This document shows positions 40,588 to 47,149 of a stretch of 64,000 nucleotides of DNA, in pieces; position 1 is the first letter of the stretch; each line of letters begins with the position of its first letter. The stretch lies in contig JBDSNU010000018.1 in the NCBI GenBank assembly GCA_039915165.1, positions 166,617 through 230,616 on the forward strand. Reading direction: 5' to 3'. The notes beneath the pieces are model-generated. The model was not told where the DNA came from. It made no database searches and worked only from the letters and a program-made list of their open reading frames with translations. The position numbers and the translations under genes are program-made. Origin of the DNA: Minisyncoccota bacterium (GTDB lineage: Bacteria > Patescibacteriota > Minisyncoccia > Phycocordibacterales > UBA9973).

Positions 40588-40612
40588 ATGTGCTTTGCTT
40601 AGCAACGCACAT
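40588..40612 (-). repeat. REP-like repeat L2 (inverted copy, atgtgctttgcttagcaacgcacat)
   Basis: reverse complement of L1 with 1 mismatch; abuts transposase ATG. Confidence 0.7.
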
Positions 40613-41251
40613 ATGAGAAAAGAAAAAATAACAACAGGAGAGTATTATCATATTTATAATAGAGGTATACATAAACAAACGATATTTCATGATCGTTCGG
40701 ATTATGCACGCTTTCTTTTTCTTGTGCTCTATTTTCAATCAGAAGTAATTTTAAAGAATGTCTCGAGGATGATTATTGGATATTTGAAAAATATGTACTT
40801 TTCTATACAAAATAAAGATTTACAAGAAATACTTCATCATAAAACAATTGAAATAATTGCATTTTGTATTATGCCAAATCATTTTCACATTCTGATTAAA
40901 CAATTAAAAGATGACGGTACTTCATCATATATGCACCGCGTACTGGGAGGGTATTCAAGATACTATAACAATAAATATGGTACAACTGGGCATATATTTC
41001 AAGCAACATACAAATCTGTACTCGTAAAAAATAATATTCAACTGCTCTACCTAACAGCATATATTCATAGAAATCCTCGCTCGCTATCTCTTTGGTATGG
41101 AAAAGAATTGCAGTATGAATGGTCTAGTTATCAAGATTATTGTGGAACTAATCGGTTTGGCGAGCTTGTATTATTCTCTGTTATCCTCAATCAATTTCAT
41201 CTTAAAAGCGCATACTATTCATTTGTTGAATCAAGTCCCGCAAAAGAGTAA
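40613..41251 (+). CDS. IS200/IS605-type Y1 (HUH) transposase, REP-associated (RAYT-like)
   Basis: HUH 'MPNHFHILI'; catalytic Tyr context 'AYIHRNP'; flanked by REP-like repeats. Confidence 0.65.
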   Translation: MRKEKITTGEYYHIYNRGIHKQTIFHDRSDYARFLFLVLYFQSEVILKNVSRMIIGYLKNMYFSIQNKDLQEILHHKTIEIIAFCIMPNHFHILIKQLKDDGTSSYMHRVLGGYSRYYNNKYGTTGHIFQATYKSVLVKNNIQLLYLTAYIHRNPRSLSLWYGKELQYEWSSYQDYCGTNRFGELVLFSVILNQFHLKSAYYSFVESSPAKE

Positions 41252-41701: not shown

Positions 41702-41746
41702 CTGTGTACTAAACCCTCGCTATTCGTAGTGGGGGTTTTATTATTG

Positions 41747-41819
41747 AGCCGTTGATCGGGATTGAACCGATGACCTCATTCTTACCATGAATGTGCTCTA
41801 CCAACTGAGCTACAACGGC
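41747..41819 (-). tRNA. tRNA-Thr (GGT)
   Basis: acceptor GCCGTTG/CAACGGC, anticodon stem CATTC/GAATG loop ATGGTAA, T-arm ATCGG-TTCAATC-CCGAT. Confidence 0.8.
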
Positions 41820-43119: not shown

Positions 43120-44922
43120 ATGGAAATCAGAAACATTGCAATTATTGCGCACGTTGACCACGGCAAAACAACATTAACTGACAAAATGCTCGCATTTTGT
43201 GGTGAAATCTTGGATGGCGGATCAATGGACTCAAACCAAATTGAACGTGAACGCGGCATTACTATTTATGCAAAAAACACCGCTGTAACGTACAAGGGAA
43301 CAAAAATTAATATTGTGGACACACCAGGACACGCCGACTTCGGTTCAGAAGTTGAACGTGTGCTTCGATCTATCGACTCTGTGTTGTTGATCGTGGATGC
43401 CCAAGAAGGCCCAATGCCTCAAACACGCTTCGTATTGAAGAAATCACTCGAACTCGGTCTTAAGCCAATCGTAGTGATCAACAAAATCGACAAGCCAGGT
43501 TCAGACACTGCTGCTACTCATGATGCAGTATTTGAATTGTTCATGGAACTTGGTGCGAACGACGAACAGCTCGACTTCACTACTGTGTATGCTATCGGTC
43601 GCGATGGTGTTGCAATGATCAAGCCAGAAGACGAACGCAAAGACCTTAGTCCTTTGTTCGATACTATTCTTGAAAAAGTTACTGTTGCTGCAAATGATAC
43701 CTCAAAGGCATTCCGTATGCAGGCATTTAACCTTGCATATGATAACTTCCTCGGACGTTTGGCTGTTGGCCGCGTGTACGAAGGCATCGTGAAGGCTGGA
43801 GACACTGTATACATCCAAAGTGAAGGCGCAGAAACTCGTACTGCAAAAATTACAAAATTGTTTACATTCCACGGCTTTACTCGTGAAGAAGGAACACAAG
43901 CAGAAGCGGGCGACATTGTTATGCTTGCTGGTATTCCAGACATCTTTATTGGTGAAACTATCAGTACTATAAAAGAAATGGAATTGCTTCCAGCGATTAC
44001 TATCGATGAACCTACTATCGTATTGGACTTCTTGGTTAACAACTCTCCATTTGCTGGTAAAGAAGGGAAGTTCGTTACTTCTCGTCAGATCCGCGAACGT
44101 CTAGAACGCGAGCTTGAAGTGAACGTTGGCTTGAAGGTTGATTTCTCTTCAGATGAAAACCGTATTGCTGAAGGGTTCAAAGTATTTGGACGTGGCGAAA
44201 TGCACATCGCCGTATTGCTTGAAACAATGCGTCGTGAAGGATATGAAATCCAGATCTCACAGCCACAGGTTATTATCAAAGATATCGATGGTGTGAAGAG
44301 TGAACCGTTTGAAGAAGTTACTATCGATGCTCCCGCTGACCACCAAGGAGTGATCATTGAAAAGCTTGGTATGCGCGGATTCATCATGGCTGACATGAAC
44401 CTCAAGAACTCAACAGTTCGTATGGTATTCACTGGTCCTACTCGTGGATTGCTCGGTTACCGTAACCAGTTCCTCGTGGACACAAAGGGTGAAGGTATCA
44501 TGTCATCACGTGTTCTTGGCTTCAAGAAATACGCTGGTGAAATTACTCGTCGTCAGGTTGGTTCTATGATTTCAATGGAATCAGGTAAGGCATTGGCCTT
44601 CGCACTCTGGGGTCTTCAGGATCGCGGCGTACTGTACATCACTCCTACAACAGAAGTGTATGAAGGTATGGTGATCGGTAACACTTCTAAGGGTGAAGAA
44701 ATGAAAGTGAACCCAACTAAGGGTAAGCAGCTTACTAACATGCGTGCATCAGGTTCTGATGAAGCGGTGACTATCATTCCACCATGGATCATGACTATCG
44801 AACGCGGACTTGAAGTAATGATGGATGATGAATTCCTAGAAGTTACTCCATTGTCAGTTCGTCTCCGTAAACAATTCTTGAACGATACAGAGCGCACAAA
44901 AGCTCGCCGTCCAAAACAATAA
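43120..44922 (+). CDS. typA: translational GTPase TypA/BipA
   Basis: G1 '[10 protein letters not shown]', G3 'DTPGH', G4 'NKID'; 600-aa EF-G-like architecture. Confidence 0.9.
44898..44922 (+). repeat. direct repeat copy 1 (aaagctcgccgtccaaaacaataag; last 8 codons + stop of typA)
   Basis: identical 25-mer recurs at 45467-45491. Confidence 0.85.
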
Positions 44923-45004
44923 GGTTGACGTTTCGTCGCAGAGGAAATATACTCTCAACGTACTACACCTTCGGGTTTGCCCTGACAACATCAGGGAGAA
45001 TTAT

Positions 45005-45043
45005 AAAAAAGCTGTTAGAATAAATTTCTAACAGCTTTTTTTA
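45005..45043. terminator. bidirectional terminator inside inserted segment
   Basis: hairpin agctgttaga-ataaatt-tctaacagct between A6 and T7. Confidence 0.7.
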
Positions 45044-45401
45044 TTACCTCAAAAGTAACTTTATCTAGCATTGTTATTTTGTTGGTAAATCGTTTTGCAT
45101 CAATGAGACGAATTTGAGATATAGCAGCATATGTTTCTTTTCTATCAATAATCCCAATTGAGATGCGGTAAAAGCTCTCATTCCCAGCCGTTGTAAGAGG
45201 GACTACAAAACACATATCGGGCCCAAACTTTTTAATGATTAAAACAGGTCTCTCATAGTTACTACCCTTACCGTCTATTTCGATTCCGATATTAATGCCA
45301 AGTGATGTCCACCAAATGTCGCGGAGATGATAAAATTTAGTTTTTCTAGAATTAATATATTTCTTCTTTTTATTCCAAGAATCAAAATCCTTTTCGGTCA
45401 T
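45015..45401 (-). CDS. MazF/PemK-family endoribonuclease toxin-like protein (no adjacent antitoxin)
   Basis: 'WWTSLGINIGIEIDGKGSNYERPVLIIKKF' and 'CFVVPLTT' match PemK/MazF core. Confidence 0.6.
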   Translation of the reverse strand: MTEKDFDSWNKKKKYINSRKTKFYHLRDIWWTSLGINIGIEIDGKGSNYERPVLIIKKFGPDMCFVVPLTTAGNESFYRISIGIIDRKETYAAISQIRLIDAKRFTNKITMLDKVTFEVIKKAVRNLF

Positions 45402-45466
45402 TTTAAGATTGTATCTCTTCGCTCATTAAGAATAATAAAAGAGAAGATAAAGTACATCTTTAATTT

Positions 45467-45491
45467 AAAGCTCGCCGTCCAAAACAATAAG
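45467..45491 (+). repeat. direct repeat copy 2 (aaagctcgccgtccaaaacaataag)
   Basis: perfect 25/25 match to typA 3' end; followed by a strong terminator. Confidence 0.85.
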
Positions 45492-45522
45492 AAAAAGGCC
45501 GACAGATGTCGGCCTTTTGTGT
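45491..45522. terminator. bidirectional terminator (probable ancestral typA terminator)
   Basis: hairpin aggccgacagatgtcggcct + TTTTGTGTG; A-tract upstream. Confidence 0.7.
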
Positions 45523-45534
45523 GGGTGAGAAACA

Positions 45535-45861
45535 TTACATAAGATAGTGATCTTCTGTACTGCGTTGCCAGCGGTCTTTAATTTTTTTAAAAAAGTAATC
45601 CTTTTTGTTTATTTGTAATTTAACAGCCGGGATGAACGGATGAACACATACTATATACGAATGTTTATTATAGCCGTGTTTTATAATGAGAGCTTCCACT
45701 GCTGATGCGGCATGGTCATTATCTACATTATTAAGGCAATAAGGAACCCATATACCAATGAATACATCTAGGGTTACAGCGGTACGAAATGATCGAATAG
45801 TAATATAGAGCACTATGCCTACTATAAGTACTGCAATACTAATCCAACGTAATATTTCCAT
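45535..45861 (-). CDS. hypothetical membrane protein
   Basis: N-terminal TM 'WISIAVLIVGIVLYITI'. Confidence 0.35.
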   Translation of the reverse strand: MEILRWISIAVLIVGIVLYITIRSFRTAVTLDVFIGIWVPYCLNNVDNDHAASAVEALIIKHGYNKHSYIVCVHPFIPAVKLQINKKDYFFKKIKDRWQRSTEDHYLM

Positions 45862-45913
45862 ATTTTTTCTTTTTTGCAACATTACAATTTTTCTGCTAGT
45901 ATGTCAACTGATT

Positions 45914-46621
45914 ATGAACGAGAAGCGACTCAAAGAATTTTGGAATAGAGAATATAGAGACCCGGAATTTTTCGCATTGTCGGAAGAAGCTAGTTCTGAT
46001 TTGCAGAAGTTTACTCGTTGGGCGATGAAAGAATATGGGAGAGATGTGTTGCGCCCTGAGATTACCGTGCTTGATGCTGGTTGTGGTAATGGTCGCAATT
46101 TGCTGTGGATGAATAAAATGTTCCACATGAAGGGTACTGGCTTTGATATCTCTGAAGTAGCGATCGCACAGGCAGCAAAGAATGCTGAGCTTCAGCAGTT
46201 TGGCAACAAGCTCATTTTTAAGGTGCACTCTATTGCACTAGATATTCCATTGCCAGATGAGTCTGTAGACTTCGTGCTCGATATGATGACCTCTCACTTT
46301 TTAAAAGAAAAAGAACGCGCGATTTATTTCAAAGAAGTTGCTCGCGTATTGAAACCACAAGGTGTGTTATTTTTTAAATCATTCTTTATGGAGGGTGATC
46401 AACATGCCAAGGACTTGGTAAAAAATGAAAGTGCTGGCGAACATAATGCCTACATCCACCCACGTTTGAAAGTGTACGAATATGTTTGGACTGATGAAGC
46501 ATTGCACGAAACATTTGGTGATCAATTCATCATGATGCACCGCGAACTTTCTCATAAACACAATATTCGCGGCAAGCCAAATAAGCGTCGATCAGTAGTG
46601 TGTTATTTCGAAAAGAAATAA
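45914..46621 (+). CDS. class I SAM-dependent methyltransferase
   Basis: motif I 'VLDAGCGNGRN'. Confidence 0.75.
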   Translation: MNEKRLKEFWNREYRDPEFFALSEEASSDLQKFTRWAMKEYGRDVLRPEITVLDAGCGNGRNLLWMNKMFHMKGTGFDISEVAIAQAAKNAELQQFGNKLIFKVHSIALDIPLPDESVDFVLDMMTSHFLKEKERAIYFKEVARVLKPQGVLFFKSFFMEGDQHAKDLVKNESAGEHNAYIHPRLKVYEYVWTDEALHETFGDQFIMMHRELSHKHNIRGKPNKRRSVVCYFEKK

Positions 46622-46645: not shown

Positions 46646-47149
46646 ATGAAAAACAGTCGCGGCTTCACTCTCATTGAGCTATTGGTAGTTATTGCTATTA
46701 TCGGTATCTTGGCATCGGTAGTCTTGAGCTCTCTTAGTACAGCGCGCATCAAGGGGCGAGATGCCAGAAGGCTCTCAGATATGCATCAACTACAGATAGC
46801 ACTTGAAATGTATTATAGTCAATATGGTGTATATCCAGTCGGTAATGCGGGCAGTGATCGATCAGAATGGATCAACAGTAATGGATACGGCGCGCTCAAT
46901 CCACTCGGTGCTTTGATAGACAATTCAATGATTCCTAAACTTCCGTATGACCCGGGTACTAATGGATACAAAGGACCTAGTGGTTGTGGCGGTGCGCAAT
47001 TTTATTCTTATTGGTCTGATGGTACCAATTATTTACTTGGTGCAGTGCAAGAAATGAAAGATCATTCAGGATGTACACAAATTGGTAACTGGAATGGGCC
47101 TGCAGATGCAAACTACACCTATCAATACTACATCCGCGTAGGCGTATAA
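46646..47149 (+). CDS. type IV pilin (second, orphan prepilin)
   Basis: 'RGFTLIELLVVIAIIGILASVVLSSL' prepilin signal. Confidence 0.8.
   Translation: MKNSRGFTLIELLVVIAIIGILASVVLSSLSTARIKGRDARRLSDMHQLQIALEMYYSQYGVYPVGNAGSDRSEWINSNGYGALNPLGALIDNSMIPKLPYDPGTNGYKGPSGCGGAQFYSYWSDGTNYLLGAVQEMKDHSGCTQIGNWNGPADANYTYQYYIRVGV

Follow-up and report, generated by a model that had tools for sequence, protein, structure and literature searches.

A MazF-family toxin gene and a small structured RNA, its likely antitoxin, form a cassette inserted behind typA in a Minisyncoccota bacterium

In a stretch of 64,000 nucleotides (nt) from a Minisyncoccota bacterium (contig JBDSNU010000018.1, positions 166,617 to 230,616; this whole stretch is called the window below), a cassette of 543 bp has been inserted behind the stop codon of typA and ahead of the typA terminator, and the last 25 bp of the target are duplicated. 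The cassette encodes a MazF/PemK-family protein of 128 amino acids and, on the opposite strand, a small structured RNA that accompanies this toxin family nearly everywhere. Our data make it probable that the cassette is a toxin-RNA module, with the RNA as antitoxin, that spreads by a duplicative insertion independent of a recombinase. MazF is the textbook type II toxin and, to our knowledge, has always been described together with a protein antitoxin. The module was found in hundreds of genomes of ultra-small bacteria of the candidate phyla radiation (CPR), often with flanking duplications. The features of the window are as follows (L-numbers are labels of the fetched comparison loci; R1 is a covariance model described below; ORF, open reading frame):

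43120..44922, plus strand: typA/bipA, translational GTPase, the intact host gene whose 3' end is duplicated (Pfam GTP_EFTU 1e-49, BipA_C 7e-40; relatives 66-94% identical)
44899..44923, plus strand: direct repeat copy 1, the functional copy, with the final typA codons, the stop codon and one extra base
44924..45466: inserted cassette, 543 bp, 33.5% G+C, comprising two genes, for the small RNA and the MazF-like protein, and the promoter of each (the relatives L003-L015 are without the cassette)
44925..44953, plus strand: sigma-70-type promoter of the small RNA, TTGACG-17-TATACT, 10 of 12 consensus positions
44957..45048, plus strand: small structured RNA, candidate RNA antitoxin, about 85-90 nt (R1 69.7 bits, E 1e-13; fold z = -6.0)
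44967-44976, plus strand: helix H1 of the RNA, ACC-UUCG-GGU
44980-44996, plus strand: helix H2, CCCUGA-CAACA-UCAGGG
45005..45041: helix H3, a bidirectional terminator hairpin with perfect 16-bp arms in the overlap region of both transcripts
45015..45401, minus strand: gene of the MazF/PemK-family toxin, a predicted endoribonuclease of 128 amino acids (PF02452 match, fold, aligned Arg and Thr)
45408..45413, minus strand: putative -10 box of the toxin gene, TACAAT, 6 nt before the ATG (read from the sequence)
45467..45491, plus strand: direct repeat copy 2, a displaced pseudo 3' end of typA
45493..45518: original typA terminator, bidirectional, also serving a minus-strand ORF of 108 amino acids (11 pairs, 6 of them G-C)

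The repeat that brackets the cassette, the 25-mer AAAGCTCGCCGTCCAAAACAATAAG, occurs exactly twice in the window, at 44899-44923 and 45467-45491. A preliminary description of this DNA had already recognized the perfect duplication of the typA 3' end and had placed the second copy correctly; the first copy begins at 44899, one base later than claimed, and the insertion that it reported measures 543 bp between the copies instead of 544. The two copies are spaced 568 bp from start to start, and the bases that flank them differ, so that the repeat is exactly 25 bp long. No third copy was found in the window, even with three mismatches, and 100 shuffles gave no chance match with up to 3 mismatches tolerated. 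Among exact direct repeats of at least 20 bp with a partner within 3 kb, the 25-mer is the sole one in the 64 kb. The G+C content of the insert (33.5%) lies in the lowest 1.8% of 543-bp windows (window mean, 40.0%). An assembly artefact is excluded, since SRR26386600 and SRR26386601, which were assembled independently, have the identical arrangement.

Relatives show how the site looks when it is empty. A scan with TypA, restricted to one genome per species, returned 80 loci, all from metagenome-assembled genomes of Patescibacteria (CPR), and the nearest relatives (83-94% TypA identity) carry the annotation Candidatus Nomurabacteria or Paceibacterota. Synteny of typA and a methyltransferase gene is shared by 14 relatives; in these, a hairpin terminator or the methyltransferase gene itself comes right after the typA stop codon, and a MazF-like gene is present in this spacer in L023 alone. 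The uninterrupted configuration, which the preliminary description had suggested looking for, is therefore present in relatives and, together with the low G+C content and the uniqueness of the duplication within the window, bears out the insertion. Hairpins stand directly after the typA stop in relatives, matching the window hairpin at 45493-45518, which begins one base past copy 2. Excision of the insert together with one repeat copy recreates the common layout "typA stop, A-tract, G+C hairpin, T-tract," and this supports the view, voiced before, that copy 2 and the hairpin are the displaced original end of typA. The empty site would read ...CCAAAACAATAAGAAAAAGGCCGACAG... Owing to the 25-bp target duplication, typA itself stayed intact, again as first described.

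The minus-strand ORF of the cassette is a genuine MazF/PemK-family protein with the MazF fold (SH3-like barrel), in line with the first assignment. It matches the PF02452 PemK_toxin profile over positions 4-109 of 109 (E 5.7e-10, 39.8 bits, cut-off 23.1) and phrog_9567, "MazF-like growth inhibitor," at 2e-16; NCBIfam and PADLOC gave no match to it. With the family profile, the closest solved structures are Bacillus subtilis EndoA/YdcE, Bacillus anthracis MoxT and Staphylococcus aureus MazF, and the best sequence match in the Protein Data Bank (PDB) is EndoA (E 1e-6). R51-P-V-L of the family aligns with vRPVLV of EndoA and P68-L-T70-T with A-I-T-A; R51 and T70, both invariant in the family alignment (A1), equal the catalytic residues R25 and T48 of EndoA. 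The AlphaFold (AF2) model of the toxin has a predicted local distance difference test (pLDDT) score of 77, and the top 50 Foldseek matches of this model in the PDB are all MazF, PemK or MoxT structures, with template modeling (TM) scores of 0.50-0.68. By family membership and predicted fold, the toxin is thus probably an endoribonuclease. Its family has a conserved N-terminal extension of about 27 residues (K-D-F-D-x-W-N-x-x-K-K ... Y; invariant residues K4, F6, W9, K13 and Y24) that is not found in canonical MazF, and it comprises 1712 representatives of 50%-identity clusters at E <= 1e-10, with annotations mostly in Patescibacteria. Some representatives (e.g., P0140, P0151, P0197 and P0208) are 260-400 amino acids long and carry the MazF-like domain at the C or N terminus; they may have arisen by in-frame fusion with duplicated ends of host genes, like the toxin of L159, or may be artefacts of gene calling. 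Across 76 loci, a TAnnnT box lies most often 6 nt before the toxin ATG, and a Shine-Dalgarno-like sequence precedes the gene in only 6 of the 76. The position of the box and the scarcity of Shine-Dalgarno sequences indicate that the predicted toxin mRNA is leaderless and derives from a weak promoter.

A conserved protein neighbor of the toxin was not found: the biggest cluster of neighboring ORFs covered 5 of 71 loci, from one lineage only, and in the window the toxin ATG and repeat copy 2 are just 65 bp apart. What is conserved instead is the other side of the gene, where about 100 nt after the toxin stop codon are strongly conserved in nearly all of the approximately 80-85 loci. The toxin had been called solitary, and it indeed has no protein partner; solitary it is not, since a conserved small RNA accompanies the family. 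Likewise, the bidirectional terminator noted between the repeat copies exists as the hairpin 45005-45041, but together with the preceding 80 nt it is actually a conserved small-RNA gene. In a sample of 80 metagenomic loci encoding toxin-family members, this gene reads, on the strand opposite to the toxin, promoter, UACAAnUG, H1, H2, an AGAA(C/A) linker and H3. The promoter, TTGAC(T/A) and TAnnnT spaced by 16-18 nt, is present in 66 of 76 loci. The family consensus of H1 is G(G/C)C-UUCG-G(C/G)C, and H2 has 5-8 bp and a GCAA, UUCG or GAAA loop. H3 has about 14 bp, with its 5' arm just past the toxin stop codon and its 3' arm antisense to the last codons, K-A-[IV]-[KR]; in the window, one arm consists of the post-stop sequence and the stop codon, the other of the toxin codons K-K-A-V-R.

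Several independent tests support this structure. In an alignment of 59 sequences, the three helices pair 93.1% of cells compared with 83.2% in column shuffles (as high or higher in 0 of 500), and control structures with the partners slid by 1-3 columns are only 42-59% paired. Compensatory double changes occur in 16 of 22 pairs, and RNAalifold agrees with the model. In the middle of H1, for instance, 30 sequences have G-C and 28 have C-G. For H3, the paired share of cells is 95.9%, and 11 of its pairs are compensatory within the family. Of the 59 sequences, 52 have UUCG as the H1 loop, and 48 have GCAA, UUCG or GAAA as the H2 loop. The strand of the RNA is fixed as the one opposite to the toxin by three features: the canonical UUCG and GNRA tetraloops exist only in the antisense direction, G.U pairs exceed A.C pairs in H3 (85 versus 16), and the promoter lies on that strand. 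A covariance model, R1, that was built without the window and without L055 places the RNA beside the toxin gene in essentially all of the 80 metagenome loci and scores 50.3 bits in L055; the window has no other significant copy. The RNA core is 76% identical in pairwise comparison, the toxin coding sequence 65% and the region upstream of the toxin 55%. No Rfam 15 family reaches the gathering level in the window or in 31 related loci, where scans by E value gave chance matches only, and full-text searches of the accessible literature turned up no report of a MazF-family toxin that has an RNA of this kind as its partner. The small RNA is therefore a well-supported structured RNA family that is absent from Rfam. 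We take its existence, strand, structure and near-universal co-occurrence with the toxin as established, and the transcript and its ends as predictions from the genomic sequence.

The single-stranded motif UACAAnUG is near-invariant (columns 6-12 of alignment A3), and positions 44962-44967 of the window read UACUACACC there; the motif could be a recognition site of the toxin. The RNA was also considered as a peptide gene and rejected as such: an NTG triplet (ATG, GTG or TTG) is fixed in 58 of 59 sequences, but ORF length lies anywhere between 2 and at least 29 codons, the frame is lost through indels in H2, the covarying changes alter amino acids, and the window is without the triplet. The RNAs of L023, L033 and the viral homologs escape detection by R1 and appear to be divergent or analogous. 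These viral contigs carry distant toxin homologs (29-37% identity), and no R1 or Rfam match was found at their loci. Inspection by eye shows that, in the viral contigs L163-L177, about 110 nt behind the stop codon are conserved and rich in hairpins, and that a -10-like box of the opposite strand comes next. The architecture of a MazF-like gene plus a convergent 3' RNA may thus be wider than the family modeled here.

Because the RNA is near-universal with the toxin and a conserved protein partner is missing, the RNA is likely the antitoxin of the toxin, in an arrangement that resembles types I and III. The near-consensus promoter of the RNA and the weak promoter of the toxin would give the balance that is typical of antitoxin excess. 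The RNA may act in two ways. In one, the two transcripts, which share H3 and would be complementary over about 40 nt, pair at the 3' end of the toxin mRNA and thereby trigger decay of the RNase III type. In the other, which is the type III mode, the conserved UACA-H1-H2 core of the RNA would bind the toxin protein directly; the two ways might also be combined. L055 differs in gene order: here the RNA gene flanks the opposite side of the toxin gene, is divergent, has an unrelated terminator of its own and shows no complementarity to the toxin. This single locus, with its lack of overlap, favors binding to the protein; it suggests that the core, which lies outside the overlap and is the most conserved part of the RNA, acts in trans, most simply on the RNase itself. 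Speculatively, the ACA-containing single strand might serve as a pseudo-substrate of the RNase. The insertion site may add to this control. Without a terminator of its own, typA would produce transcripts that read through the RNA in sense as far as H3. By the geometry of the locus, this readthrough would add antitoxin-sense RNA and oppose transcription of the toxin, and the old typA terminator would now shield the toxin promoter from transcription of the 108-amino-acid ORF.

The mobility of the module is indicated by recurrent duplications around it. When the 400 nt upstream of the toxin start were compared with the 900 nt downstream of the RNA in 72 distinct loci, exact direct repeats of at least 14 bp (up to 52 bp) bracketed the module in 13 of them; in controls, repeats were found in 0.5% of cross-locus pairings and, as inverted repeats at the same locus, in 0 of 72. 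With mismatches allowed, the flanking repeats reach 18-107 bp at 80-97% identity. The start-to-start spacings are 555-640 bp in 7 of the 13 loci and 708-900 bp in most others, and the repeat sequence differs at every locus. The repeats lie at gene 3' ends in the window, L107 (79 of 85 identical, convergent gene) and L023, at the 5' ends of co-directional downstream genes in L130, L117 and L114, and at terminator hairpins in L087 and L133. In L159, a duplicated promoter, the ATG and the first four host codons are fused in frame to the toxin (MQHK/DFD...). The distance from the repeat to the module promoter varies from 1 to about 120 nt, and neither terminal inverted repeats nor conserved cassette ends were seen by eye at the junctions of 14 loci. 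Furthermore, L114 (1-4249) and L125 contain tandem arrays of three or four modules, each after the same host-gene 5' segment. This segment of 88-117 nt is present five times, three times before toxin genes and twice before paralogous host genes, and the first two modules form identical tandem units of 595 bp. Such arrays are the expected product of unequal crossing-over between flanking repeats.

The same spacer has received a module independently in L023 (87% TypA identity), whose toxin is only 45% identical to that of the window. Its module is followed by a degenerate typA end (53 of 66 identical, ...RRPKQ and stop), a terminator of its own and a different small ORF, and in front of it the promoter region of the methyltransferase gene is present a second time (47 of 49 identical). 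Exactly this layout would arise if a circle or anchored fragment with the module and another spacer allele had undergone a single crossover with the chromosome. In sum, the duplications argue for an insertion driven by recombination and against a site-specific recombinase or a transposase. Possible routes would be a Campbell-type single crossover, homology-facilitated illegitimate recombination after DNA uptake, or template switching during replication; in the first two, the incoming DNA would carry the module and a donor flank. With a single crossover, the junction of the circle would read ...CATCTTTAATTT + 25-mer + GTTGACGTTTCG... As intergenic spacers are often only 3-60 bp long, only insertions that duplicate the gene end or promoter that is hit would be viable, and this constraint may explain the frequent duplications around the module. 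We infer that the module spreads as a selfish or defense cassette.

Some observations weigh against a toxin-RNA module that spreads in this way. The window protein deviates at five near-invariant positions of the family (C32T, G58K, S72A, T102A and L105F), and H1 and H2 of the window RNA have atypical sequences; given these departures, the window copy could be divergent or decaying. The antitoxin role of the RNA and the toxicity of the protein are predictions. The data fit pairing with the mRNA as well as binding to the protein, and the non-overlapping RNA of L055 is a single case; cognate-specific pairing of the 5' part of the RNA with the translation start region of the toxin was not found (p = 0.27). 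As regards the insertion, present data do not distinguish among the routes, 25 bp is near the lower limit for a RecA-dependent crossover, and about 80% of the loci have no recognizable flanking repeat. Exact look-ups of the TypA and MazF proteins returned only the same genome in two samples, both with the insert, and the search for homologs of the 108-amino-acid ORF was empty, so that a strain of the same species with an empty site was not found by these means.

The preliminary description had read the locus as a site-specific insertion, and a solitary MazF gene delivered by an integrase that uses the typA 3' end as attachment site would indeed account for a duplication that covers and restores a gene 3' end, like the attL/attR cores of integrative elements. 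MazF-like genes adjoin typA in three other lineages (L023, L055 and L033), and the degenerate typA end in L023, with its 53 of 66 identical positions, has the same look. By our own estimate, however, three modules per roughly 640 kb of typA flanks is about the chance expectation if a genome has a few modules, and a special association with typA, considered on the basis of these 3 of 80 other lineages, was rejected as roughly chance. The toxin gene is also not solitary, two genes and their promoters account for all of the 543 bp, and no integrase, integrase remnant, att core or terminal repeats are present. Elsewhere, the same module lies between unrelated duplications of 14-107 bp, at 5' ends, 3' ends and terminators and with variable end-points; delivery by an integrase is very unlikely. 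We also give little credit to a reading of the cassette as what is left of a larger integrated element, such as a prophage or island, at the typA 3' end, from which the rest was deleted, with the 25-bp repeats as attL and attR and an addictive toxin module that resisted loss. Toxin-antitoxin modules are known to persist in decaying mobile elements, distant homologs of the toxin are found on viral contigs and in a PHROG with the annotation moron or host takeover, and the spacer between typA and the methyltransferase gene is a hotspot of variable small genes, all of which would suit such a history. The borders of the cassette speak against it: the RNA promoter has its -35 box starting 2 bp past copy 1, the toxin -10 box has copy 2 at 53 bp on its upstream side, and further sequence from an element is lacking. 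If decay had been independent, it would not have halted at the same borders again and again, yet the spacings cluster at 555-640 bp in 7 of the 13 loci.

A different doubt concerns the RNA. It might be only the 3' untranslated region or a terminator element of the toxin mRNA, or might have another regulatory task, with the toxin controlled by an unlinked antitoxin or by its own N-terminal extension, or it might be that the protein is a non-toxic housekeeping or defense RNase. H3 does terminate in both directions, the 27-residue extension is conserved in the family, the RNA shows no cognate-specific pairing with the 5' region of the toxin, and its antitoxin activity is predicted from sequence. 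However, the conserved promoter on the opposite strand, the strand-specific tetraloops and the excess of G.U over A.C pairs point to a separate antisense transcript, and the RNA core is better conserved than the toxin gene itself. Co-occurrence is near 100%, with no other conserved partner. In L055, the RNA keeps its own promoter-side motif and a terminator although it is detached from the toxin 3' end. L128 has a second RNA copy (2688-2769; 91% identical) 470 bp downstream, beside a truncated toxin gene; this copy is possibly an orphan antitoxin, and the retention of an RNA beside a truncated toxin gene is the usual pattern of decay of toxin-antitoxin loci. On balance, a role of the RNA other than that of an antitoxin seems unlikely to us, and the same holds for a toxin that is controlled otherwise or harmless.

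As a toxin-RNA module, the cassette combines properties of several known systems. With the type II systems MazEF and PemIK (Kid-Kis) it shares the toxin family PF02452, the MazF fold and the equivalents of R25 and T48 of EndoA. It differs from them by the lack of a MazE/PemI-type gene or any other conserved protein neighbor in 71 loci, and by the N-terminal extension of about 27 residues, a predicted leaderless and monocistronic mRNA and the RNA partner. Type I toxins are small hydrophobic membrane peptides, whereas the toxin described here is a soluble MazF-fold RNase, as predicted, of 128 amino acids. The layout is that of type I systems such as txpA/RatA, bsrG/SR4 and yonT/SR6 of B. subtilis and par of Enterococcus faecalis, with convergent genes, a shared bidirectional terminator, a 3' overlap of about 40 nt, a strong RNA promoter and a weak toxin promoter; by its gene geometry, the RNA would be a cis-encoded, overlapping antisense RNA. 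In contrast to type I, the non-overlapping UACA/H1/H2 part is the most conserved one, and the RNA of L055 has no overlap at all. In txpA/RatA, bsrG/SR4 and yonT/SR6, the 3' duplex is cleaved by RNase III (PMC6562991).

The type III systems ToxIN, CptIN and TenpIN likewise consist of an endoribonuclease and a structured non-coding RNA without a protein antitoxin, and ToxN has a Kid/MazF-like fold. Unlike in type III, the RNA has one unit only and a promoter of its own on the opposite strand, an upstream repeat array is absent (no ToxI-like tandem repeats were found in 44800-45600), and the toxin matches PF02452 and MazF structures, not ToxN. A ToxIN-like binding and inhibition of the toxin protein by the RNA, and processing of the RNA by the toxin, are only suggested, by the UACA-H1-H2 core and by the arrangement in L055. 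Type III systems are described as often mobile and defense-associated (PMC8860590). Another structured RNA that is associated with pemK-family genes is the pemK RNA motif of Rfam, RF02913. Identity with this motif was rejected, as it has no match in the window region at E <= 10; in L134, a chance-level match (16.3 bits compared with a gathering threshold of 34.8, E 2.2) lies in a different place, and no match in the 31 loci reached the gathering level.

As a mobile unit, the module resembles phage morons and promoter-gene-terminator cassettes, which are likewise compact, autonomous units between resident genes, but the window copy lies in a bacterial chromosome without prophage context. IS4-family insertion sequences such as IS1549 make long and variable target duplications, and the duplications that flank the module are also variable and unusually long. 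In contrast to insertion sequences, transposons and miniature inverted-repeat transposable elements, the module has no transposase, second protein gene, terminal inverted repeats or conserved ends, and its duplications vary from 14 to 107 bp; in contrast to site-specific integrative elements, it has no integrase and no common att core. Tentatively, and with somewhat more doubt than confidence, we propose that the module belongs to an undescribed toxin-antitoxin class, in which a MazF-fold RNase would be held by a single, non-repetitive RNA with a UACA pseudo-substrate beside two tetraloop hairpins and in which the unit of 0.55 kb would itself be an autonomous mobile element. Such a class might combine a mechanism like that of type III, without repeats, with the layout of type I, and might spread through CPR genomes, and in related forms via phages, independently of a recombinase.

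If this is true, a MazF subfamily of about 1,700 clusters at 50% identity whose sole conserved partner is an RNA would blur the division into types I, II and III, would provide a compact and experimentally tractable RNA-protein pair, and would explain many of the "orphan" PemK/MazF annotations in Patescibacteria genomes. The RNA would add a new, well-supported structured family to those in Rfam. A recombinase-free unit of 0.55 kb with recurrent duplications of variable length points to a route by which cassettes may colonize very compact genomes, and the duplications could mark recombination or transformation in organisms that are mostly uncultured.

The surroundings of the cassette deserve a few remarks. 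Within this clade, the spacer between typA and the methyltransferase gene (44923-45916 in the window) is extremely variable, with lengths from 2-3 bp to 1.46 kb, and long spacers contain unrelated small minus-strand ORFs of 66-205 amino acids that differ between relatives; that of L010 has a GIY-YIG-like ORF of 92 amino acids. The membrane-like ORF of 108 amino acids in the window (45535-45861, minus strand) is an ORFan for which no homolog was found. Between the -35 and -10 boxes of the small-RNA promoter in the window (44927-44947) lies the string GACGTTTCGTC(G)(C)AGA(A)GGAAA. The GACGTTTCGTC..GGAAA string recurs right after the typA stop in the distant loci L033 (5795-5818), where it adjoins an ordinary terminator, and L050 (~2690); this recurrence may be a coincidence or a remnant. 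Just downstream of the methyltransferase gene is a type IV pilin-like gene (46646-47149; N_methyl motif, FTLIELLVVIAIIGILA), which is of relevance for DNA uptake in CPR bacteria. About 2 kb upstream of typA lies a gene for a Y1_Tnp protein of 218 amino acids (window ~40595-41251, corresponding to 3476-4132 of L002), a tyrosine transposase of the IS200/IS605 type or a REP-associated one, with a DEAD/ResIII helicase gene and a tRNA-Thr gene (41746-41819) as its neighbors.

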